Shown piece by piece: positions 20,002-64,000 of a DNA stretch of 64,000 nucleotides (positions are counted from its first letter, which is position 1; the number at the start of each line of letters is the position of its first letter). Location of the stretch: positions 23,361-87,360 of IMG/VR virus record IMGVR_UViG_3300005076_000001; one strand, 5' to 3'. A program made the translations under genes and the position numbers. This stretch comes from a virus (Duplodnaviria > Heunggongvirae > Uroviricota > Caudoviricetes). A model generated the notes under the pieces. That model saw nothing but the letters and a program-made list of their open reading frames with translations, was not told the origin of the DNA and ran no database searches.

Positions 20002-21987
20002 ATGGCAAATCTTACACCAACAGCAATTTGGGGTGATGTGTTTCAGATCGAAAAAAACACACCTGTTCTTGGTGGCGCAGGAGGTGTTGCGAACCGGCAG
20101 GCACAAGAACTAGCGAATAGGACACAGTTTCTTTACGAGAATATGGGGGAGGAATTTGCCCCTACCTACGCAGCCCTCCGTGCGTATAACGGCAGTGCCA
20201 CTCGGATGCAGGTTGGGGGCCGCACTAACTATTTTGACGGCGCAGGCGGTATTGTTGTTCGTACTGGTAGCCAGCCTGACAACGACGGCACTGTGTGGGT
20301 AGATGCGCTTGGCCGCAGCTGGGAGCGTCAATTTAGTGGTCCGGTAGATATTCGTTGGTGGGGCGCAAAAGGCGGGAACTATAATTCTTCCCCGGCATTG
20401 CAGGCTGCATACAATTACCTTGTATCTACAGGAAACGGTGGAACCATTCTAGTCCCACCTGCACCTGATGGCTATCGATTGGATACCCCACTTAACTTCA
20501 CTGACGCGTGGGTTCCAATTACTATTAAGGGGATGTCTGGGACAAATATCCCAAGCAATCGACCGAATAACTTCCCCTATGGTTCGCTGTTCTGGGCAAA
20601 CACTGGCGGGGTGTGTATTGATATTGCAGGCCGATGCAATTTTGGTTTGGAAGATATTGTTATCGACACGTTCGATACTACAAAATGCCCTACCCCATCC
20701 AGAATTGGTGTGCTTGGCGCTCGTACTACTACGAGCCAAGATAACCAAAACCACCACTTTAAAAACGTGGCGATTTTCATGAAGTCACAACGCCCCAGCG
20801 CCCCGTCCATCGCGCACTATGCTTATGGTACAGAGCTTGGGTATTACGAGAACTGCTGGTACTTTGCCGACCTTCCGGCAGCGTACTGCTTGGCTAACGT
20901 ACTCGGCGTAACGTCTCCACACCGCACACTTGTGGCAAGCGGCGTTTCCGCTACTGCGAACACCGGTAATGGCTGCCGTTTTGTGACAGTTTCCCCCTCT
21001 GACCCTGCCATCTGGTTTGACGGAACTTACGACAACAGCTTTAAGCAGTCATACTTCTACAATGAAAGTGGCGTATTCACCAATCGCCCCGCGCTGCTTC
21101 TAACTGGCAATAACCACAGTTTGTCGGTTGATACTTTCCAGTGCGAAGAGTTTGCAAACGTCTTTGAGCAGTATGGCTCTTTGTTCAACTCCAAGATTAA
21201 GGGGTTTGTTACAAGCACTAGCTACGCAACAGCAGCTAGCGAAATTGGTCGTTTCACTGGCGCGGCGATTACTGTTGATAACAATTTCGAGATTGAAACA
21301 GGCGGAATTGGCGTAGCTTATGAAGCGTACAAAGGCACCACTGCGGCAAGTTCTGTTTTTGCTAACAACAAGTTCAAGTTAAACCAAACTGGCGGATTTA
21401 ATGTATCTTTTGGTGCTAGCAGTAATGTCGGAAATTTGCACTTTGACAAATGGACGGATGACGTGTCCGTGTTGTTGGGTGGGCTAACCAACTCGACAAA
21501 CATCACTGTAAACGGCAAACAAAAAACAATTGGTGCTGTGAATGTTTCTGAGGGGTTTGTTTTCAAGTATGAAGCCAAGCCAAATAGCACGGCCAACTCA
21601 ATTTTGTCTTTTACCGTTCCAAATGGCGATATTGCATATTGTTATTTTGTTGATTACGTTATTAACTCCAGCGCAAAAGAAGCAGTTAAAACTGGCAGAG
21701 TTCAAGTTTCTGTCGCCAGAAAAACTGACCAAGCCATGGTGCTTACCGCTGAGAAATTGCATGAAAACACACTTCAAGCAGCCGGATCAGAAAGCATAAG
21801 CACTACCTTTTCGGTGTCAGGTATTTTTGATCCTGCAACTGGTACGCAGTATGCTTTTCTAACGTGCAACGCCAACTCTTCTGCTGGTGGAACATCCTAT
21901 ATTCGTGGTAGTGTTAAATCGCTAGGCGCAAGCCTACTAAACTCTCCAATTTACGGAAATCAAAATATAATCATTGGAACGGTATAG
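20002..21987 (+). CDS. tailspike / tail fibre with pectate-lyase-like right-handed beta-helix (probable depolymerase)
   Basis: 661 aa; conserved fibre N-terminal anchor; WWGAKGGNYNSSPALQAAYNYL...GGTILVPP pectate_lyase_3-like; body ~55% GC vs ~42% genome. Confidence 0.6.
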   Translation: MANLTPTAIWGDVFQIEKNTPVLGGAGGVANRQAQELANRTQFLYENMGEEFAPTYAALRAYNGSATRMQVGGRTNYFDGAGGIVVRTGSQPDNDGTVWVDALGRSWERQFSGPVDIRWWGAKGGNYNSSPALQAAYNYLVSTGNGGTILVPPAPDGYRLDTPLNFTDAWVPITIKGMSGTNIPSNRPNNFPYGSLFWANTGGVCIDIAGRCNFGLEDIVIDTFDTTKCPTPSRIGVLGARTTTSQDNQNHHFKNVAIFMKSQRPSAPSIAHYAYGTELGYYENCWYFADLPAAYCLANVLGVTSPHRTLVASGVSATANTGNGCRFVTVSPSDPAIWFDGTYDNSFKQSYFYNESGVFTNRPALLLTGNNHSLSVDTFQCEEFANVFEQYGSLFNSKIKGFVTSTSYATAASEIGRFTGAAITVDNNFEIETGGIGVAYEAYKGTTAASSVFANNKFKLNQTGGFNVSFGASSNVGNLHFDKWTDDVSVLLGGLTNSTNITVNGKQKTIGAVNVSEGFVFKYEAKPNSTANSILSFTVPNGDIAYCYFVDYVINSSAKEAVKTGRVQVSVARKTDQAMVLTAEKLHENTLQAAGSESISTTFSVSGIFDPATGTQYAFLTCNANSSAGGTSYIRGSVKSLGASLLNSPIYGNQNIIIGTV

Positions 21988-33640: not shown

Positions 33641-33960
33641 TCTTCCTTCGCCTCCCAATAAGCATCAACATCAAACTTATTGTTCTTGTCAAACACCACT
33701 GTCACACGACCACCACAACCATCATAGCAATTCTTGAAAATAATGTAGCTTTCTGTTTCTACAGGTGTACCATGATGCTCGACACCATATGTGTTTCCAT
33801 TTCCGTTGACCAAGTCTTCTTTGTTGTTGTCTGTGTTCCAGTGGACAGCACTGGAAACTGAATACCACAAACAGTCTGTCAAATCGTCAATGTCAGGTGT
33901 GATGAATTTGCTCAGTAAGGTGGCTGCTGCCAGCATTTCTTTAACGTCGTTGTCAGTCAT
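33637..33960 (-). CDS. hypothetical protein
   Basis: 107 aa ORF. Confidence 0.3.
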   Translation of the reverse strand: MTDNDVKEMLAAATLLSKFITPDIDDLTDCLWYSVSSAVHWNTDNNKEDLVNGNGNTYGVEHHGTPVETESYIIFKNCYDGCGGRVTVVFDKNNKFDVDAYWEAKEE

Positions 33961-34585
33961 TTTGTTGCTCCTCTTTCACTTCATACTCCATCAGTGCCTT
34001 ATAAACCCGTGGGTCAACTCTGCCCTTGTAGTGCTCAGCAACAAGCTTCACATACTTTTCCTTTTCTATTTTAAAGAAAGCAAAAGCAGCTTCAGGTGTT
34101 GTGAACTCCTTGTAAACTGTACTCAGGTTCATCGCACCTCTGCGGATTGTTGCAGAATAACGTTCGCCTCTTGACGTGAGTGCAACACCAGTCGGCAACC
34201 CTTTAGTGCATTTCCTGTTCACTTGCAGCAAATTGTTTATAGCAACAGGTACAAAGACACATGTCTCTGGGGAGTATGCTTTACCATTACCGTTAGCCAA
34301 AACATCTTTGTCTAGGTGAAACATCTTTCCGTTATCGTCTAAGGAACAGTATCCAATCTGAGTTTGGCACCACTCCACAAAAGACTGAAAATCGGTAAAG
34401 AGATTAAGAGTCCCTTCATAATAACTCACTTTCGAGTCACTACCAACTGTTCTCCTACGTACACTATAGAATAGTGCAGCAGCGTGCGTTGTTACTTTTA
34501 CATAGGGTTCAGGGTTAAATGCTTTTACCCACAAACCATTCACTTTAAAATCTGGAACATTCTTTCTTGTTATGTATCTGCTCAT
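33953..34585 (-). CDS. HNH-type homing endonuclease with C-terminal AP2 DNA-binding domain
   Basis: FQSFVEW...HLDKDVLANGNGKAYSPETCVFVPVAINN nuclease-like region then AP2-like GVALTSRGERYSATIRRGAMNLSTVYKEFTTPEAAFAFF; paralogous to 45258..46568 and 59761..60342. Confidence 0.5.
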   Translation of the reverse strand: MSRYITRKNVPDFKVNGLWVKAFNPEPYVKVTTHAAALFYSVRRRTVGSDSKVSYYEGTLNLFTDFQSFVEWCQTQIGYCSLDDNGKMFHLDKDVLANGNGKAYSPETCVFVPVAINNLLQVNRKCTKGLPTGVALTSRGERYSATIRRGAMNLSTVYKEFTTPEAAFAFFKIEKEKYVKLVAEHYKGRVDPRVYKALMEYEVKEEQQND

Positions 34586-45257: not shown

Positions 45258-46568
45258 TTACACACGTTCCTTTACAGAGTAGCTCATCAGTGCGTGATAC
45301 GCAGCGGGAATGATATGCTCTTTCCATTTCTCAGCAAGACGTCTGGCATAAGCTTCTTTGCAACCACAATATGCTTCATGGGCTTCCTCTTGAGTTGGGA
45401 AGAATCCAAGGTATTCCCTACCTTTCTCTGTGTTGCAACGAGCAATGTACCCAACTGTCTCATTAGGTGTTTTAGGCTCAATGATGTGTACACCACGCAA
45501 GAACTTGGAGTCGCTCGGCTCGATGAGGAACTTGTTAACTTCTGATGGTAGGAAACAACAGCCTTCTGGCCCGTACACTTTGTTGTTAGGAATCAACAGG
45601 TCTTTGTCAAGTTCAAACTTAGGTAGTTGCCAGTTTGGTTGTGCCAAACCCCATTCAGCGAAGTTATGAAAATTCCACCACCTTTGGTCTACCTCTTTAT
45701 CCTCATAGCTTCTACCTGTTGGTTTTTGCAACTCAAACTCATTGTAACAGCGACTGAACATCCTTACCCAATAACCGTACATCCGCTCTGGTGCATGTTC
45801 ACCACGCTTGCTGCCGCGAGGAACAAACCTGCCAACACCAAAGAAACCTCTACCCTCTACAGACGGCTGCGTTGGTGGTTTAATACCGCCACTCAAAATA
45901 TTAGCAGAAGCATTCCAAGACTCGCTACCATCTTGCCATCGAATGAGAACGTCATGTGGCCCTTCGTAGCCAATAACTTCGCCTTCCCAACCGCTATTTG
46001 TTTTGAACTTTTGCCCAATACGGACAGCGCCTGTCGGATGCCTTACATTACCTTCTTTTAGGTTGTTCCAAGAAGTAACAACTTCACTTCCATCCTCAAA
46101 GGCAACTAGAATCTTTGTGGCGTTTACAAACTGTTTAACCACAACACTCCCGTAGTTGTTCGTAGAGAATACAGTACCAATCTCCGGTTTGCTCTTGGTT
46201 GGATGGCGATTGTGCCCTTGTCGAAGAACTGCAATGTTGGTAGTATGCTCCGTTCCATCGCTCAACCACTTAACACGCATCTCGGAGTTTTTCAATACTT
46301 CCACAATCTCAACAACATCACCGTCATGGCAAGGGAATTGTTGCCCAACGTAAGGCTTACCGAACGTAGGATGAAGTGGGCGCTGTTGTTTAATATAAGT
46401 GCCGGTGGTTGTCACAATAGCCCCGTCAAGGTCGAAACGAACGTCAATGTCCTTTCTTCCTCGGTATGCAACAATCTCAACTTCAAGCCCCTGTTTGTTT
46501 GTATAGCGATAGCCTACAAAATAGGCACCTTTCCTACTACCCATATACCCTCCCAATAAATAAGCCAA
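45258..46568 (-). CDS. HNH-type homing endonuclease with four N-terminal ~50 aa tandem repeats and C-terminal AP2 domain
   Basis: Repeats ending in (R/L)HP; nuclease-like WWNFHNFAEW...LDKDLLIPNNKVYGPEGCCFLPSEVN; AP2-like GREYLGFFPTQEEAHEAY; paralog of 33953..34585. Confidence 0.5.
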   Translation of the reverse strand: MAYLLGGYMGSRKGAYFVGYRYTNKQGLEVEIVAYRGRKDIDVRFDLDGAIVTTTGTYIKQQRPLHPTFGKPYVGQQFPCHDGDVVEIVEVLKNSEMRVKWLSDGTEHTTNIAVLRQGHNRHPTKSKPEIGTVFSTNNYGSVVVKQFVNATKILVAFEDGSEVVTSWNNLKEGNVRHPTGAVRIGQKFKTNSGWEGEVIGYEGPHDVLIRWQDGSESWNASANILSGGIKPPTQPSVEGRGFFGVGRFVPRGSKRGEHAPERMYGYWVRMFSRCYNEFELQKPTGRSYEDKEVDQRWWNFHNFAEWGLAQPNWQLPKFELDKDLLIPNNKVYGPEGCCFLPSEVNKFLIEPSDSKFLRGVHIIEPKTPNETVGYIARCNTEKGREYLGFFPTQEEAHEAYCGCKEAYARRLAEKWKEHIIPAAYHALMSYSVKERV

Positions 46569-53233: not shown

Positions 53234-53920
53234 GTGATAAGTTGTAACGTATACATACTAACAGACAAGACAAACAAAGCAGTAAAGATAGGGATAACAA
53301 AGAAACATCCAGATGTACGTATCTCTACTATCAACAAAGAAGCAACGAAGTACAAGTTTGTTCTTCATAAGTTTGAAACAATGTCCACACCAAAGGCAAG
53401 GTGGGTAGAGAACAAGTTGCTTGATGCATTAGAGAAGATGGGTGGCGCTTGGGTTGAAGATGATGATTTTGGTGGTGTAACGGAAGTTGCTACACTTGAT
53501 GTAACCAATGTTGTGTTTGATGCTTGTGTCTCGTATCTAGACAATCTTCTCCTCACTCTGGCAGAACAAGAGTTCAAAGAACGAAGTTACACAGAACTAG
53601 AAAATGACAGCAGTGTTCTCAAAATTCCTCTGAATCTTCTTGGTGCAAAATACCTGCACAACCTTTTCACAGATGCTAAAATTCAACTAGACCTTACACA
53701 CAAGGTTTTGCTGTGCTTGCTAAAGGACGATGGTAACGTAGACCAATCCACACTTGCAGATGTTTGTGGGGTTAGCAGACACTCTGTTTTGCGTGCAATT
53801 TCTATGCTGTCCTCTTGTGGCATTGTCGAGGTTGTTAAGGTGCGAGCAAGCAATGGAGCCGTGTACAACAACTATGTGGTGCATGAAATTGATGGTGTAG
53901 CATTTGTAGCATACAAATAA
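53234..53920 (+). CDS. T5orf172 (GIY-YIG-like) domain + winged-helix DNA-binding protein
   Basis: GTG start with CAGGAGATAGAA RBS; N-terminal VYILTDKTNKAVKIGITKK; C-terminal wHTH LLKDDGNVDQSTLADVCGVSRHSVLRAISML. Confidence 0.45.
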   Translation: MISCNVYILTDKTNKAVKIGITKKHPDVRISTINKEATKYKFVLHKFETMSTPKARWVENKLLDALEKMGGAWVEDDDFGGVTEVATLDVTNVVFDACVSYLDNLLLTLAEQEFKERSYTELENDSSVLKIPLNLLGAKYLHNLFTDAKIQLDLTHKVLLCLLKDDGNVDQSTLADVCGVSRHSVLRAISMLSSCGIVEVVKVRASNGAVYNNYVVHEIDGVAFVAYK

Positions 53921-53933
53921 ATCCATTCTAGCC

Positions 53934-53962
53934 TTGACATGCCCTCTTCGGAGGGCTATTAT
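53934..53962 (+). promoter_or_regulatory. promoter TTGACA-N17-TATTAT with GCCCTC-TTCG-GAGGGC hairpin in spacer
   Basis: -35 53934-53939; -10 53957-53962; hairpin 53941-53956 may also terminate upstream gene. Confidence 0.35.
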
Positions 53963-53998
53963 CCGTATATAGACACTGACAACGTAAGGAGAAACCAA

Positions 53999-54637
53999 AT
54001 GAAATCTATCAACTTAGCCAACCTGAAAGAACAACGCTTTAACAAGCTGCAAGAAAGCCTCTGGCTCGATTACGAATCCTTAACCAAAGCAGGTGCAATT
54101 ATTGCTGGCGGCAGCTTGCGCACACTGATTGACAAAGAAGATGAAGTGTGCGACATTGATCTTTTCTTCAAAGATGAGGAAAGTATTGCTAACACTAAGA
54201 AATTGCTTGAAGACAACGAATACGTTTGTGTGTTCCAATGTCCTCTTGGCTACCTTTCCACTTATTACAAGTTCAGTGAGAAGATTGTTGGTGAACGCTT
54301 TGACGGAAGCCCTGAATACGAAGTGGTGAGTAAGGTGCAACTGATTACACGAGACTTGTATATTGATCTGGAACATGTTGTTTCGTCTTTTGATCTGATG
54401 CCATGTTGTGTTGCAATGGATGATGAACGTATTGTGTTTGCTGATAAATGGGTGAAGAGTGTCAAGAAGAAAATGCTCTACTTGAACAACCTTACCTACC
54501 CTGTTGCTACATTGAATCGAATTGACAAATACAAGCGCAAAGGCTACTATGCCAGTGAAGCATTTTATGTAAACATTATCACAACAATTCAGAGCAGCAG
54601 CTTTGACGGTGACAGAATGTCCTTGTACATCGACTGA
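53999..54637 (+). CDS. nucleotidyltransferase-fold protein (pol beta superfamily, minimal NTase)
   Basis: AGGSLRTLIDKEDEVCDIDLFF matches hG[GS]-x9-13-DhD NTase signature; ATG 53999 with AAGGAGAAACC RBS. Confidence 0.5.
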   Translation: MKSINLANLKEQRFNKLQESLWLDYESLTKAGAIIAGGSLRTLIDKEDEVCDIDLFFKDEESIANTKKLLEDNEYVCVFQCPLGYLSTYYKFSEKIVGERFDGSPEYEVVSKVQLITRDLYIDLEHVVSSFDLMPCCVAMDDERIVFADKWVKSVKKKMLYLNNLTYPVATLNRIDKYKRKGYYASEAFYVNIITTIQSSSFDGDRMSLYID

Positions 54638-58765: not shown

Positions 58766-58932
58766 CAAGTGGCTACTATTTCATTAAGCTAGCTACAAAC
58801 GTAGCCCTTCCAATGTACGTCATATGTCTTGACGAACGCATGTATATTTGGCAGAATGGGAAACAACAATGGCTGCAATTGAAGAAAGAGCAAATAATGG
58901 GTGAACGTCTTACGTATGAGGGAGATAAGTAA
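58747..58932 (+). CDS. hypothetical protein
   Basis: 61 aa ORF. Confidence 0.25.
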   Translation: MLGKAMTSGYYFIKLATNVALPMYVICLDERMYIWQNGKQQWLQLKKEQIMGERLTYEGDK

Positions 58933-59768
58933 TGCTATACAACATCCTCAAACAACTTCAAGAAACACCGAGTACAAACGATAAGCTTTCTATTTTGAAA
59001 GCAAACAAAGACAATGAGACATTGAAAGAATACATGCGTCTTGTTTGTTGCCCTTCTGTCTCGTTTTATATTACAGCAAAGACGTTTCCTGTTGTATCTA
59101 AGATAGGGACACATACATTCCAGTCTCTCATGAATGCTGGGTATTCTCTTGGTACAAAAGAACTTTCTCAACGTCATGTTACAGGACAGGCAGCAAAGAA
59201 TTTTATTGTTGCTACAATGGAAGACCTTGATGAAGAGCACCAACAACTGTACAAAATGCTTCTTCTCAAGGACATTCGTGCGAAAGTGGGGGCAACACTT
59301 GTGAATAAGGTGTGGCCTAATTTGTGTGTCTCTGTTCCATATCAACGCTGCTCTCTTCCAGATGAAAAGACATTGGAGAAGTTTAAGAATGGAGAACAGT
59401 TCTTTGTTCAACTTAAATACGATAGTTCTTTTGCATATGCGTTCAAGTCTCCACGTGAATTTGCCCTTATTACAAGGGCCGGGTCACGATACCCCAAAGA
59501 AATTGCAAGTATCATTACAGAAGACATTCCAGAGAACTACGTGTTGATGGGTGAGTTAGAGGTTGTTTACAAAGGGGAAGTCCTTTCTAGAAAAGATGGC
59601 TGTGGGGTGCTAAATAGCTTGTTGAACGGAGGGCCGTTACCTTCTGGTTGTGGGCTTCAATTAACTGCGTGGGATGTTGTCAGTGTTGAAGAATTTTCAA
59701 AAAGTAAGAGTGACAAACCGTACTGGGAAAGACTCAACCTGCTGAGGGGGATGTTCACGAATGAGTGA
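58932..59768 (+). CDS. ATP-dependent DNA ligase (T4 gp30-like), N-terminal fragment (through motif IIIa)
   Basis: MLYNILKQLQETPSTNDKLSILKANKDNETLKEYMRL ~ T4 ligase N-terminus; VNKVWPNL; motif I region QLKYDSSF; LITRAGSRY; ends where T4 ligase continues. Confidence 0.7.
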   Translation: MLYNILKQLQETPSTNDKLSILKANKDNETLKEYMRLVCCPSVSFYITAKTFPVVSKIGTHTFQSLMNAGYSLGTKELSQRHVTGQAAKNFIVATMEDLDEEHQQLYKMLLLKDIRAKVGATLVNKVWPNLCVSVPYQRCSLPDEKTLEKFKNGEQFFVQLKYDSSFAYAFKSPREFALITRAGSRYPKEIASIITEDIPENYVLMGELEVVYKGEVLSRKDGCGVLNSLLNGGPLPSGCGLQLTAWDVVSVEEFSKSKSDKPYWERLNLLRGMFTNE

Positions 59769-60342
59769 TAATTTACACTGGGAAGATTATTTCTACTACG
59801 ACGAAACAAGTCCTAGTTGTCTAAGGTGGAAAGTTTCTGTGTACAGTGGATGTGGGTTAAAAACACAGAATGTCAGAGAAAACCAAGAAATCCAGCATAA
59901 AGATCGTGAAGGGTATTTTGTTGTTGGGTTGATGAAGAGGAGACATAAAGTACATAGAATAATCTATGAGATGTTCTACGGAGAAATCCCAGAGGGCATG
60001 GTGATAGACCACGTAGATAGAGACAAAGAAAACAACAAGATTGAGAATCTGCGCGCAGTTTCATGCAAAGTTAATTCCAGAAATACTAAAAGATACTCCT
60101 CCAACACGTCTGGGGTGACAGGGGTTAGTTTGCAAACCTCTTATAAGTCTTCAGGAAATTACACAGCGTATGTTGCAAATTGGACAGATTTAGAAGGAGT
60201 AAAACACGGAAAGTCATTTTCCATCCTTAAATATGGGGAAGAATTGGCATTGAAATTGGCCGAGGAGTATAGACGCAGTAAGATTGCGGAGCTTAATGCG
60301 CAAGGAGCTGGGTACAATGACACACATGGGGATGTGCTATGA
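59761..60342 (+). CDS. HNH_3 homing endonuclease with AP2 domain, inserted between ligase halves
   Basis: IDHVDRDKENNKIENLRAVSCKVNSRN HNH_3 motif; AP2-like GVTGVSLQTSYKSSGNYTAYVANW...ELALKLAEEYRR; own SD GAGGGGGA; ATG overlaps ligase-N stop. Confidence 0.75.
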   Translation: MSDNLHWEDYFYYDETSPSCLRWKVSVYSGCGLKTQNVRENQEIQHKDREGYFVVGLMKRRHKVHRIIYEMFYGEIPEGMVIDHVDRDKENNKIENLRAVSCKVNSRNTKRYSSNTSGVTGVSLQTSYKSSGNYTAYVANWTDLEGVKHGKSFSILKYGEELALKLAEEYRRSKIAELNAQGAGYNDTHGDVL

Positions 60343-60839
60343 AAAATATTAAACTCGCAGAAACACACACAGTTACGTCACTGGAGGGTGCTTTTGAGAT
60401 CTATTCCAGATATGTTGAGCAAGGTTATGAGGGTGTGATTATTAAGACAAAAGATTTTTTGTGGAGTTCGTCTACAAGTAAGGAATGTCTCAAGCTGAAA
60501 GTGGAAGCAGAGATTGACTTGATTTGGACAGACAGTGTGGAAGGCAAGGGGAAAGCTGCCGGAATGCTTGGTGCTATGTGCTTGCAAAGCTCTTGTGGAC
60601 GTGTTAAAGTGGATTGTGGCACTGGCTATACAGATGCACAGCGTAAACAGCTTTGGGAAGAACGTAGCAGCCTGCATGGCTCTGTTGTGACGGTGAAAGC
60701 CAACGACCTCGTCTCGAAGGAAGGCAGCAATGTGTTGTCTCTATTCCTACCTGTGTTCATTGAGCTACGTGAGAAGCAAGAGGCAGACAGCTTGGAACGT
60801 ATTGAGCAAATTTTCAATGCTGCTAAACATATTGCTTGA
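60339..60839 (+). CDS. ATP-dependent DNA ligase C-terminal fragment (motifs IV, V and OB domain)
   Basis: EGVIIK (motif IV), CLKLK (motif V), GKGKAAGMLGAM...LFLPVFIELRE aligns with T4 ligase C-terminus; own SD GGGGA; ATGA overlap with HEG stop. Confidence 0.7.
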   Translation: MKNIKLAETHTVTSLEGAFEIYSRYVEQGYEGVIIKTKDFLWSSSTSKECLKLKVEAEIDLIWTDSVEGKGKAAGMLGAMCLQSSCGRVKVDCGTGYTDAQRKQLWEERSSLHGSVVTVKANDLVSKEGSNVLSLFLPVFIELREKQEADSLERIEQIFNAAKHIA

Positions 60840-61639: not shown

Positions 61640-62350
61640 ATGAATAAAATTGAAGTGTTTGAATGTCCTACGTGCAACACGCTGCATCGCACAGAGAAAG
61701 GTGTGCAAGGGTGCATGAAGCTGCACAAAAAGGCAGAAGATAAGCGTGCTGAAGCTCTTGAGCAGAAAAAGCTAGAACAAGAAATCCGCAACATTCCAGC
61801 ACGAGAGGCAGAAAGCTTGGAGCAATTTCTTGACATGGTGTTGGAGCTACAACATAAGGTGCCACACCTTGTTGAAGAAGGGCATGTTACAGCTTACAAA
61901 ATCACTCGCAACCCTTGGCGCTGGGGTGTTGGTGAAGTGGGGCTGGATGTTACGTTTTGGTATAAGAACAAGAAAAGAACTGGTTGGTTTTCCCCGTCAA
62001 CAGTGATGGATTTCTTCGTTGGTTTTAGAACAGGTAGTGGAAGTGGTAACGGAGAAGATGAAATGTCTCTCCAATGTTATTTCGACATTTCTGTTATTGA
62101 TAAAATGCGAGATAAAATCCAAAAAGAATTGGAGAATAAAGAAGAGCTTTCTGCATTTATTCAGCATGTGCAAGAAGAGAATAACAAAGCATTTTATAAT
62201 AGCCCACATATTGTCGAATTAACTACAAAGATTAAAGCGTTAAATACAGAGCTAAATAGGCTTCGTAATGAACTATTTACTGTTCCGACAGAGAATAAAA
62301 TAAACGAGGAGCGGTTGAAATATACGTGGCAATATATTGATGCCCTTTAA
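61640..62350 (+). CDS. hypothetical protein with N-terminal Zn ribbon and coiled coil
   Basis: CPTCNTLH...GCMKLH then KAEDKRAEALEQKKLEQE. Confidence 0.35.
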   Translation: MNKIEVFECPTCNTLHRTEKGVQGCMKLHKKAEDKRAEALEQKKLEQEIRNIPAREAESLEQFLDMVLELQHKVPHLVEEGHVTAYKITRNPWRWGVGEVGLDVTFWYKNKKRTGWFSPSTVMDFFVGFRTGSGSGNGEDEMSLQCYFDISVIDKMRDKIQKELENKEELSAFIQHVQEENNKAFYNSPHIVELTTKIKALNTELNRLRNELFTVPTENKINEERLKYTWQYIDAL

Positions 62351-62774
62351 CTTGTTTTAAAAACCATCCCCGCCTAATTAAGCCCCGCCTTATTTAGGCT
62401 GGGGCATTTCTTATTATGTGAGCGCCAGCACACAACCCTACAACTGACGTATGTTCTACGAACGTGCAGACATTTCCCTAGAAATCGAGGACATTTGTTT
62501 CTAACACTCTTGGAAAGCTATTTACCAAACTACTCAAGGAGTTTATTATACGAGGGCTTTGGAATGGTATTTGTGTTTAAATGGGAGAGGAATCGAGGAA
62601 TAAATTCTGGTGAAGTCTTAAAATGCTTTTCGTAAATAGACAGAGAAATGTAAAACTACTCGACCGACGTGTTTATACAAAATGCTGACGCTGGTTTTGC
62701 TTTTTCGCGCCAGTTCCGTCGTGATTTCTTCCTATAAAACCTTGGAATGGTTTTTGCATTTTTATATAGGCGTA

Positions 62775-62894
62775 AAACATTTATACAATATGCTGACGCA
62801 TATATTGTCTTTTAACAATATGTCGAAACATAGAATATCAACAGACAATATATCGGCGTATATAATGAACAAAGACAATATGTCTAAATACATT
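62775..62894. repeat. iteron array: four direct repeats of ACAATAT(G/A)T... with exact 30-bp period, plus 20-bp direct repeat TTTATACAAnATGCTGACGC
   Basis: ACAATA cores at 62775, 62805, 62835, 62865; second copy of TTTATACAA..ATGCTGACGC at 62664 and 62771; AT-rich, noncoding. Confidence 0.6.
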
Positions 62895-63240
62895 ATATTT
62901 ATATGTAAAATGAATTAGCCCGTGGGCGCTGGCTTTTTAAACCAGTTGCAATCTATTAATAAACATTCCCTTGTTAATTTTACGAAAACGACAGGCACCA
63001 GCCGTCCTGCTCGATTGACTAGCTTCTTCGCGGAGTATACAGGAAATCAGAGAAAAGGCAAGCGGAATATTGAACAGGACGTTAGACAAGAAAGGAATAT
63101 AAAACGGCGTTTTTATGCTTACAAGAATATCGCGCAGCCTTGCCGTCCACCCCGGCAAACTGGCCTTCGAATCAGTAGGAACATTATAAAACAAAAAGAC
63201 AGGACAATGCAAGCCATATCCTACAAACGACAGGCAAAAT

Positions 63241-63268
63241 AAAAGCCCCTTGCGGGGCTTGTTTTGTT
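63241..63268. terminator. bidirectional rho-independent terminator
   Basis: AAAAGCCCC-ttgc-GGGGCTT then GTTTTGTT; A-tract on other side. Confidence 0.65.
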
Positions 63269-63273
63269 CATAT

Positions 63274-63717
63274 TCACAGCCACCAAGGGGCGCGGGCTTC
63301 TACTACTTCTTTCACGCAACCGACGCTAACCCAGATATTAGCACCTTCATGTTGCACACAAACCGTTTCAGGGTCGTATTGATTGAAACGCGCATTGTAT
63401 CCGCCAGCGTCATAATCAACGACAAGCAGCGGCGTTTTGTTTGGCGCTTTACGGCTACGTTGCAATACTACGGTGCAACCAATCAGTTTACTGCCGTAAA
63501 CCTTGGTTTCGTTGGCTTGCCACCAATCGGCAGCTGCCTGTTTTTCTTCTTGTGTAGCATTTACGCGCGCATCATCAAATCGACCATTGTCGTATGCACT
63601 GGCCACGCAGTCCATGTATACCTCTTCGCCATTCCACATAATGGCAAACGTGCGCGCGCCGTCGTTGTCGTTGTAAGTGTGGTCTACTGCTACGCAAACA
63701 GGGGCTTGGGTTTTCAT
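63274..63717 (-). CDS. hypothetical protein encoded by GC-rich moron
   Basis: 147 aa; ~52% GC vs ~42% flanks; own promoter and terminator. Confidence 0.45.
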   Translation of the reverse strand: MKTQAPVCVAVDHTYNDNDGARTFAIMWNGEEVYMDCVASAYDNGRFDDARVNATQEEKQAAADWWQANETKVYGSKLIGCTVVLQRSRKAPNKTPLLVVDYDAGGYNARFNQYDPETVCVQHEGANIWVSVGCVKEVVEARAPWWL

Positions 63718-63745
63718 GATGTTGGCCTTTCGTGCCGTGTTGATA

Positions 63746-63773
63746 AGATAGGTTGATTATAGCAAAGCCGTGT
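63746..63773 (-). promoter_or_regulatory. promoter TTGCAA-N16-TATAAT (minus strand) for moron gene
   Basis: minus-strand TTGCAA (plus 63768-63773), TATAAT (plus 63746-63751); RBS GAAAGG. Confidence 0.5.
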
Positions 63774-63910
63774 AACATTGCAAGCGTTATTTTCACCTTG
63801 TTACAAAATAACAGGCAGCGGTGCCGTGCACCCCCAGCCATGCTGATCGAACCATTAAGGACAGTATACAAAAGAAAAGCAGCAAGCGCAAATTGTTTTT
63901 CGTGGCGTGC

Positions 63911-64000
63911 CTGGTAGCCTTCGGCTTTGCCTTAGCCTGGGCTTCGCCCTGGTAGCCTTCGGCTTTGCCTTAGCCTGGGCTTCGCCCTGGTAGCCTTCGG
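63911..64000. repeat. tandem 38-bp direct repeat (>=2.4 copies, truncated by window end), GC-rich with small hairpins
   Basis: unit CTGGTAGCCTTCGGCTTTGCCTTAGCCTGGGCTTCGCC at 63911-63948, 63949-63986, partial 63987-64000; internal AGCC-TTC-GGCT and AGCC-TG-GGCT mini-hairpins. Confidence 0.6.

Follow-up and report, generated by a model that had tools for sequence, protein, structure and literature searches.

In the genome of an uncultivated marine ~87-kb myovirus, a noncoding region of ~900 bp occupies one fixed map position, between the end of the ThyX/ligase operon and a promoter-dense early region, which raises the question of what this region does for the phage. An earlier note on the window (that is, the whole 64,000-nucleotide stretch of DNA analyzed here) had described the region as AT-rich, devoid of convincing open reading frames (ORFs) and filled with direct repeats, and had proposed that it acts as an origin or in packaging control. 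After comparative analysis, these two appear to remain the best explanations, and the minor repeats that had been listed beside the main array add little to either. Judged from its sequence, the region would most likely be a control site for the start of replication or for the marking of genome ends, and thus an element of a familiar kind.

The phage, represented by an 87,360-bp JGI metagenome contig, is a distant relative of the Pseudomonas phages PAK_P3, CHA_P1, and KPP10. The window encodes a Mu-type portal, an S49 protease, an E-type capsid protein, a tape measure protein, and, at the sheath position, a DUF3383-family protein; its replication and metabolism genes include those for a family A DNA polymerase, a gp4-like primase-helicase, ribonucleotide reductase (RNR), ThyX, and an ATP-dependent ligase, the last being split by an HNH gene. 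The portal shows 41-42% identity to the portals of the PAK_P3/KPP10 group, and the C-terminal domain of the terminase large subunit shows 39% identity to the PAK_P3/KPP10/PaP1 lineage. The structural module has the gene order of CHA_P1 at closely matching coordinates, and the replication module is homologous to that of CHA_P1 but inverted. Both the terminase and the structural module are therefore related to those of phages whose genomes have short exact terminal repeats. The terminase gene lies ~23 kb from the noncoding region, and a gene for a small terminase could not be identified. Pseudomonas phage vB_PsaM_M1, whose polymerase is 46-47% identical, was also considered as a closer guide and was rejected, as it has a different gene order and only two scattered homologues near the region.

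Does the region encode anything? A small RNA or a small protein would be suggested by a 35-residue gene that the gene caller predicted at 62618-62780 on the minus strand, by mechanical ORFs of 106, 91, and 78 codons, and by the conserved hairpin at 62990-63006, which is followed on the minus strand by GTCGTTTT. However, the codon-usage log-odds of all seven ORFs inside 62351-63273 were 0 or below (-0.38 to 0.00, with -0.15 for ORF 62495-62635, -0.04 for 62922-63242 on the plus strand, and 0.00 for 62937-63212 on the minus strand), compared with 0.27 ± 0.07 for 31 real genes. The three longest ORFs found no match in PHROG, none of the ORFs of the region is kept in the relatives, and the tblastx similarity between the region and the related contig L062 is spread over several frames and both strands, as in noncoding DNA. 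Likewise, none of the Rfam 15 covariance models matched the region at its gathering score (best E-value 2.3), and four RNA folds gave z-scores from -0.5 to +0.9, the value for the right flank (63014-63216) being about -0.5 on both strands. A small RNA or small protein encoded here is thus highly improbable: the computational check gave no ORF, RNA family, or RNA structure signal, and the coding and RNA explanations for the region are excluded. The earlier description of the region as noncoding was borne out, as was that of its composition, with a GC content of 0.357 for 62001-63000, compared with 0.40-0.45 for most of the remaining 1-kb bins in the window. The GC skew of the 64-kb window tracks the direction of transcription and carries no origin signal; it was discarded as an origin marker, since it mirrors gene orientation only. 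Inspection of the region by eye revealed no convincing DnaA box or IHF site. Together with the comparisons described below, the sequence suggests a conserved, modular, noncoding cis-acting element, the parts of which are collected in Table 1.

Table 1 Features of the noncoding region and its borders (coordinates of the window; cassette types A and B as defined in the text)
Feature	Coordinates	Strand	Remarks
236-aa gene	61640-62350	+	Stop codon forms the left edge of the noncoding region
Noncoding region	62351-63273		Between the stop codons of the 236-aa gene (+) and the 147-aa gene (-)
Intrinsic terminator	62368-62405 (scan: hairpin and T-run 62387-62405)	+	Closes the operon of ThyX, split ligase and 236-aa gene
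Left flank module LF1, noncoding	62406-62671		Repeats AATCGAGGA (62483, 62591) and TTGGAA-type (62509, 62558)
Lone copy of the left half of unit 1, TTTATACAAAATGCTGACGC	62672-62691	+	108 bp upstream of unit 1
Conserved block TTCCTATAAAACC...GTTTTTGCATTTTTATATAGGCGTAAA	62729-62776		Right edge is the breakpoint of cassette types A/B
Four 30-bp iteron units	62780-62899	+	Imperfect palindromes ACAATAT-N8-ATAKAWT; same four in L076 (4380-4500)
AT-rich stretch, candidate DNA-unwinding element	62885-62917		About 85% A+T; adjoins the array
Short G+C-rich segment with small dyad CTGG-N9-CCAG	62918-62950		Read from the sequence; follows the AT-rich stretch
Most widely conserved block, ATTCCCTT..TTTTACGAAAACGACAGGC, then imperfect hairpin ending CCTGCTCG	62958-63013
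Right flank of the ancestral noncoding region	63014-63216
Junction with the inserted cassette	63217-63273		Second exact copy of AAACGACAGGCA (63225); bidirectional terminator 63243-63260
147-aa gene	63274-63717	-	Codon score 0.235; in the insertion, outside the iteron region

The most conspicuous part of the region is its array of four repeats. Four iterons of the form ACAATAT(G/A)T had been reported at 62775-62894; the four copies and their exact 30-bp spacing, about three helical turns, were confirmed (ACAATAT begins at 62785, 62815, 62845, and 62875), while the repeated unit itself had to be redrawn, because the first copy reads ACAATATGC, so that the core common to all four is ACAATAT[GA] rather than the 9-mer, and the units extend over 62780-62899. 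A fifth copy of ACAATAT lies inverted at 62802-62808. Tandem Repeats Finder (TRF) detected the array with period 30 and score 76. At an offset of 30, the array matches itself at 55 of 90 bases, a level reached by none of 500 Markov shuffles (mean 40.9, maximum 48) and by none of 300 sequences drawn from a composition model of the local AT-rich DNA. The periodicity of the array is thus real and far beyond chance. The four units are 50-70% identical in pairwise comparison, with 10 of 30 columns invariant across them and seven of these ten contiguous (P about 0.001). Each unit forms an imperfect palindrome of 22-24 bp around a core, ACAATAT, that is invariant in the window, and this dyad symmetry is what a dimeric binder would be expected to need. 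A weight matrix built from the units scored at least 27.9 bits on the four of them and at most 14.6 bits anywhere else in the 64 kb, which argues against the unit being a genome-wide promoter class; the possibility of a phage-specific promoter class was rejected on the same ground. Sigma-70-like hexamers are present in unit 3 (TCAACA-17-TATAAT, 10/12) and unit 4 (AAGACA-16-TATATT, 9/12).

The DNA around the array is of uneven conservation. By nearest-neighbor free energy, calculated in windows of 30, 50, 100, and 200 bp, the segment 62718-62917, which holds the array and the AT-rich stretch next to it, is the least stable duplex of the 64 kb. To its left, the terminator that closes the upstream operon is kept in four related contigs (L073, L074, L075, and L077), and module LF1 is alignable in L073 and L074, with the same sequence visible in L075 and L077; in L062, L063, and L076, all of which carry a homing-endonuclease-like gene upstream, LF1 is swapped for a different flank. 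The 20-bp direct repeat described earlier, TTTATACAA[AT]ATGCTGACGC, indeed has two copies, at 62672 and 62780, which lie 108 rather than 107 bp apart from start to start; two copies occurred in no shuffle. Its upstream copy, TTTATACAAAATGCTGACGC, is missing at the homologous position in L076 and L075 and is thus specific to this phage. Another repeat, TTGGAATGGT[AT]TTTG, was placed 4-9 bp off at 62562 and 62732, its two copies actually starting at 62558 (with one mismatch) and 62741, and AATCGAGGA occurs twice as claimed (62483 and 62591). The CTTGGAATGG and AATCGAGGA repeats are ordinary low-copy flank repeats whose copies vary among the relatives. The block directly left of the array (TTCCTATAAAACC...ATATAGGCGTAAA) is kept in L062 and L063, its 3' two-thirds (CCTTGGAATGG...GGCGTAAA) in L076, and its last ~30 bp in L075. 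To the right of the array, the G+C-rich segment is partly deleted in L076; the block at 62958-63013 is found in L062, L063, L075, L076, and L078 and is still recognizable in L079, and its hairpin stays while the letters of the stem vary among the relatives, as judged by eye only. Farther right, 63084-63215 has homologous DNA in L078 (5720-5845) and, over part of its length, in L063 (8406-8455).

The comparisons were made with nine related metagenomic contigs that we recovered (L062, L063, and L073-L080). A noncoding region of 0.6-1.05 kb was found downstream of the ThyX/ligase operon in every contig that is long enough (L062, L063, L075, L076, and L078-L080), followed by a run of small genes, each behind a TTGACA-N17-TAnnnT promoter, which gives the downstream DNA the look of an early region. 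The noncoding region stays in the nine contigs while the genes on both sides differ among them: upstream lies the 236-aa gene alone or together with a homing-endonuclease-like gene, and downstream the relatives have either a gene for a pyrimidine-dimer glycosylase (PF03013) or one of the small early genes. In L062 and L075, the flanks of the region read the same way.

Within the noncoding region, the conserved blocks at 62729-62776 (left) and 62958-63013 (right) frame a variable center, of which three types could be distinguished. Type A, the four-unit array, is shared by the window and L076, which are 93-95% identical over 62689-63073, a level that extends across the cassette and therefore has no power to show selection on the cores; one core of the L076 array reads ACATTAT. 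Type B, carried by L062, L063, L075, and L078, consists of a single perfect palindrome (ATTATAT-N6-ATATAAT), an AT-rich stretch of ~40 bp, and TTCCG(C)-N5-6-(G)CGGRA palindromes at 20- and 60-bp spacing; in all four carriers, the stretch after the TATAAT palindrome ranks first or second among the least stable DNA. The half-sites of type B are conserved between phages and its hairpins are not kept by compensatory change (by eye), which favors protein binding over a nucleic-acid structure. Type C, with ATCGG..ACATATAA repeats, was seen in L077 only. Inside the cassette, types A and B have in common GGCGTATATAATG followed by AT-rich DNA; the -10 hexamer is kept in all cassette types, and the -35 hexamer is absent in type B. 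The distant relatives L079 and L080 have no comparable array, and the region is not the least stable DNA there. Another noncoding region of L062 contains CACAATAT twice, exactly 30 bp apart; it was considered as a true homologue of the array and rejected, as it shows no alignable similarity beyond this 8-mer.

Wider searches added no relatives. When the DNA of the region was compared with 50,697 phage records, neither the near nor the distant search mode gave a match, and IMG/VR scans with both flanking proteins returned no relatives. An IMG/VR scan for three successive ACAATAT-N23 units yielded 60 loci, none of which was counted as a relative because tblastn with 20 proteins of the window matched only RNR and ThyX, at two of the loci. 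Exact scans for unit 1 and for the junction of units 3 and 4 found none.

The right edge of the region has a different history. Both of the bounding terminators reported earlier exist, one at 62387-62405 on the plus strand and one working in both directions at 63243-63260; the right-hand one, however, belongs to an insertion and lies outside the ancestral region. It serves the minus-strand 147-aa gene, and early promoters occupy its position in the relatives. The protein product of the 147-aa gene is 33-39% identical to hypothetical proteins of Vibrio phages; no homologue of the gene was detected in L062 by tblastx, and the gene calls of L075 and L076 place other genes at its position. The inserted cassette comprises the terminator, the 147-aa gene, its promoter, and a perfect tandem repeat of three 38-bp copies (100% identity) 1 kb from the array, and it has taken the place of the promoters and of the 5' portion of the glycosylase gene.

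What, then, would the central cassette do? Our preferred reading, held tentatively and with a probability of roughly 0.4, is that the segment 62780-62917 may be a replication origin composed of iterons and an unwinding element, in the manner of lambda ori. It is suggested by four phased dyad units that are unique in the 64 kb and stand beside the least stable duplex, and by the map position that stays fixed despite the turnover of the flanks, with the different phased array of type B in the same place. A lambda-ori-like origin is characterized by a site of 17-24 bp, often dyad-symmetric, that is directly repeated at least three times, as is the case in the four-unit array; the phasing on helical turns (30 bp in type A, 20 and 60 bp in type B) and the adjacent AT-rich element expected of an iteron origin are present as well. 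At such an origin, a sequence-specific DNA-binding protein would assemble on the four phased dyad sites, the adjoining AT-rich DNA would melt after this assembly, and replication would start at the cassette; the conserved GGCGTATATAATG may add transcriptional activation, as at T7/T4 origins. The only lead to such a protein is a winged-helix protein (T5orf172 plus winged helix) encoded at 53234-53920, which has weak PHROG matches to "replication initiation protein" (E = 1e-5); the type-B contig L075 encodes an HTH_36 protein at the corresponding place, and the two share only 36% identity; the type-B contig L062 has no winged-helix gene at the equivalent position. No initiator co-varying with the cassette type was identified in the 64-kb window of the genome and the relatives. 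The replisome, with its gp4-type primase-helicase and family A polymerase, is T7-like and counts against an iteron initiator; the lack of a comparable array in L079 and L080 and the uninformative GC skew likewise speak against an origin. Phages with a T7-like replisome usually start from promoters, without iteron-binding initiators.

The location of the region is explained about as well, as far as the comparison indicates, by a reading in which it would be the concatemer junction, containing or being the direct terminal repeat of a linear genome that is not permuted, with the phased repeats as sites for the packaging machinery or for end-binding proteins that position the terminase cuts. We consider this reading possible, though somewhat less probable than an origin. 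It draws on the membership of the phage in the wider PAK_P3/KPP10/PaP1 lineage (portal, terminase, and structural gene order), in which the KPP10-like phages have direct terminal repeats of 756-771 bp and the PAK_P1-like phages terminal repeats of 1153-1190 bp, as determined by read coverage or run-off sequencing (PMC4482731, PMC4309531, PMC3652863). In the CHA_P1 record, the 754-bp repeat is present as two tandem copies at 61954-63461 (first copy 61954-62707). On the circular map, this places it ~62 kb beyond the terminase gene and ~23 kb short of reaching that gene again, which is the map position of 62351-63273. Flanked by two operons of the same orientation, the CHA_P1 repeat carries only four short annotated minus-strand ORFs per two copies and contains ATT[GA]TGTAAC five times directly and once inverted per copy (six times by the 9-mer TTACACAAT); elsewhere in the ~86 kb of the CHA_P1 record examined, the 9-mer is present a single time and the 10-mer not at all. 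The terminus is thus a close rival, because the CHA_P1 terminal repeat occupies the same map position and contains short repeats of its own that are genome-unique; as in CHA_P1 (61954-62707), an ORF-poor region of the 0.75-1.2-kb class lies between co-oriented operons at the equivalent place (62351-63216). Furthermore, the region stands in the relatives directly upstream of the promoter-dense early region, as in T7-type genomes. In PAK_P3, gp113, which is located at the predicted terminus, is the sole untranscribed gene (PMC4933390).

Several observations weigh against the terminus. The correspondence with CHA_P1 is one of map position only, with just a short ACAAT-containing motif looking alike, and tblastn found no protein homology between the flanking genes and CHA_P1 that would tie the region to the terminal repeat. 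A second noncoding region, 3.6-4.4 kb downstream (L062 18583-19394 and L075 15171-16168), is equally eligible and carries TTACACAAT, and the terminal repeat of PaP1, when checked, contained no iterated array. Two short contigs do end within the region, at positions equivalent to 62612 and 62636 of the window, which co-occurring strains can explain; six sequences (L001, L062, L063, L075, L076, and L078) span the region without duplication or break and are uninformative on the termini. An origin and a terminus are compatible with each other, and both may share the noncoding region.

A more elaborate proposal, which we hold to be unlikely, is that types A, B, and C are interchangeable specificity cassettes for an essential cis-acting site, each matched to its own DNA-binding protein, in a lineage of uncultivated marine ~87-kb myoviruses. 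These PAK_P3-like lytic phages with a T7 replisome would then possess a lambda-style origin that depends on an initiator, or else an array recognized by the terminase, and recombination would swap its specificity, as in the ori/O modules of lambdoid phages. Also unlikely is that the cassette controls transcription at the head of the early region, as tandem promoters for the host RNA polymerase or as an operator array for a regulator. The sigma-70-like hexamers of units 3 and 4 would fit this, as would GGCGTATATAATG, the one cassette element common to types A and B, and the strong TTGACA-N17-TAnnnT promoters that begin 240-500 bp downstream of the region and recur before nearly every small gene; repeated promoter elements are also found in the early region of PAK_P1-like phages (PMC4309531). 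However, the conserved TATAAT is not preceded by a usable -35 hexamer in the relatives, the bipartite unit forms no promoter class, being confined to this array within the 64 kb, the 30-bp spacing would be too short for several polymerases at once, and a rightward transcript would here be a noncoding RNA of ~370 nt that ends at 63260 without structure or coding signal. We regard it as even more doubtful that the array arose by replication slippage in an AT-rich spacer and has no function, being kept only through the close kinship of its two carriers. It is true that the array is no better conserved than its surroundings between the window and L076 (93-95% identity), that the same phage has another young tandem repeat in the 38-bp triplication, and that distant relatives lack the array. 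Against slippage stand the divergence of the units (50-70% identity) alongside a contiguous invariant 7-mer in exact register, the phased palindromic arrays of the alternative cassettes at the same place, and the CACAATAT pair at 30-bp spacing in the other noncoding region of L062.

Overall, the region offers a precise candidate site of ~140 bp, of the origin or terminus type, in an uncultivated marine relative of the PAK_P3/KPP10/PaP1-like phages, and the alternative cassettes at one locus amount to a natural experiment through which the protein that recognizes them could be sought. The literature that we found on PAK_P3/KPP10/PaP1-like myoviruses holds no mapped replication origin beyond a GC-skew guess for PaP1, and the termini of these phages are known only from coverage or run-off data for a few isolates (PMC4482731, PMC4309531, PMC3652863). 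The element is otherwise of a familiar kind and not new, its interest coming mainly from the alternative cassettes and from the lack of a mapped origin in the lineage.

Among known systems, several show partial likeness to this locus. With the terminal repeats of Nankokuvirus and Pakpunavirus (CHA_P1, PAK_P3, KPP10-like phages, and PaP1), the region shares the lineage, the map position relative to the terminase, and the 0.75-1.2-kb size class; like the CHA_P1 repeat, it is ORF-poor, lies between co-oriented operons, and contains short repeats that are rare or absent elsewhere in the genome. Unlike the CHA_P1-type repeats, it has non-homologous flanking genes and a G+C content of 36-42% rather than 55%, and it is here a candidate terminus by map position. 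The R sites of lambda cosB, the pacL/pacR boxes of SPP1, and the pac hexamers of P1 are phased sites in a noncoding or bendable segment that direct the terminase. The present array resembles them in having several phased short putative sites; those arrays adjoin the terminase genes, whereas here the terminase gene is ~23 kb away. At the T7 primary origin and at T4 ori(uvsY) and ori(34), a promoter is followed by an AT-rich unwinding element, and the region resembles these origins in its conserved TATAAT directly before the least stable DNA as well as in the T7-like replisome; it differs in the iteron array, which is not needed there, and in the -35 hexamer, which is not conserved in the relatives. 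Lambda ori consists of four dyad iterons, to which the O protein binds, then an AT-rich unwinding region, and finally a small palindrome. The lambda array lies inside the O gene, with O encoded in cis and the iterons packed more tightly, whereas the present array is intergenic with 30-bp spacing, shows no sequence similarity to lambda ori, and belongs to a phage with a T7-like replisome in which no O-like initiator was identified. The two are nevertheless alike in their four direct dyad repeats near whole helical turns, in the AT-rich stretch next to them, in the small palindrome that follows, and in the existence of alternative "specificity" versions among related phages.

Immediately to the right of the noncoding region, a gene encoding a 147-aa protein has taken the place of the early promoters and of the 5' portion of a gene for pyrimidine-dimer glycosylase (PF03013). 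The 147-aa gene lies in an inserted cassette and carries its own promoter (TTGCAA-16-TATAAT) as well as its own terminator. The 3' ~155 nt of the glycosylase gene persist as a remnant just past the window end. An exact 12-mer, AAACGACAGGCA, is located at the cassette junction (63225), and a second copy of it occurs at 62986. Near the window end, a perfect tandem repeat of a 38-bp unit (CCTGGTAGCCTTCGGCTTTGCCTTAGCCTGGGCTTCGC; three copies, with a period that is not a multiple of three) was also observed, continuing to about position 64023 in L001, the contig that runs on past the window. No such repeat was seen at the equivalent position in the related metagenomic contigs that we read (L062, L063, L075, L076, and L078).

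In the relatives, a second noncoding region, 0.8-1 kb in length, is present at the distal end of the short early region; the window stops short of its equivalent in the window phage. Within this region of L062, CACAATAT occurs twice (18861 and 18891) at a spacing of exactly 30 bp. Furthermore, TTACACAAT, the iterated motif in the terminal repeat of the distantly related Pseudomonas phage CHA_P1, was found in the second noncoding regions of both L062 and L078.

Coordinates of the features at the right end of the window and in related contigs
Feature	Coordinates	Remark
Replacement by the inserted 147-aa gene	window 63217-63900; L001 about 560-790	gene on the - strand
38-bp x 3 tandem repeat	window 63910-64000	flanked by the 147-aa gene's promoter and the glycosylase gene remnant
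Second noncoding region, L062	18583-19394	
Second noncoding region, L075	15171-16168	
Second noncoding region, L078	9245-10016	

Two short and mutually independent contigs, L073 and L074, which come from different samples, both end in the noncoding region's left flank, at window-equivalent positions 62612 and 62636, that is, no more than 25 bp apart. This coincidence could be due to chance, a strain-variation branch in the assembly graph, or a coverage boundary. The sole Rfam match at gathering score in the window is a hit at 21070-21088 to the 19-nt model of the HIV-1 splice donor; it scores 30.3 bits (cut-off 30; E = 0.023) and almost certainly arose by chance.

Elsewhere in the window, an HNH/AP2 homing-endonuclease gene (59761-60342) interrupts the ATP-dependent DNA ligase (58932-60839), leaving two ORFs, 58932-59768 and 60339-60839, each of which it overlaps; the ligase in relatives is intact (454-493 aa). 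A two-gene insertion at 53234-54637, not present in L062, encodes a T5orf172 and winged-helix protein with weak PHROG matches to 'replication initiation protein', and a second product that weakly matches a nucleotidyltransferase PHROG (E = 1.5e-5); at the equivalent map position, L075 carries an HTH_36 protein showing 36% identity to the former. HNH-type endonuclease genes are dispersed in the window, numbering at least four (33953-34585, 45258-46568, 59761-60342, and the T5orf172 gene).

Compared with CHA_P1, the structural module of the window phage has an identical gene order, whereas the entire replication and nucleotide-metabolism module (window 24073-52625) is inverted relative to its counterpart at 28.6-46.6 kb in CHA_P1.
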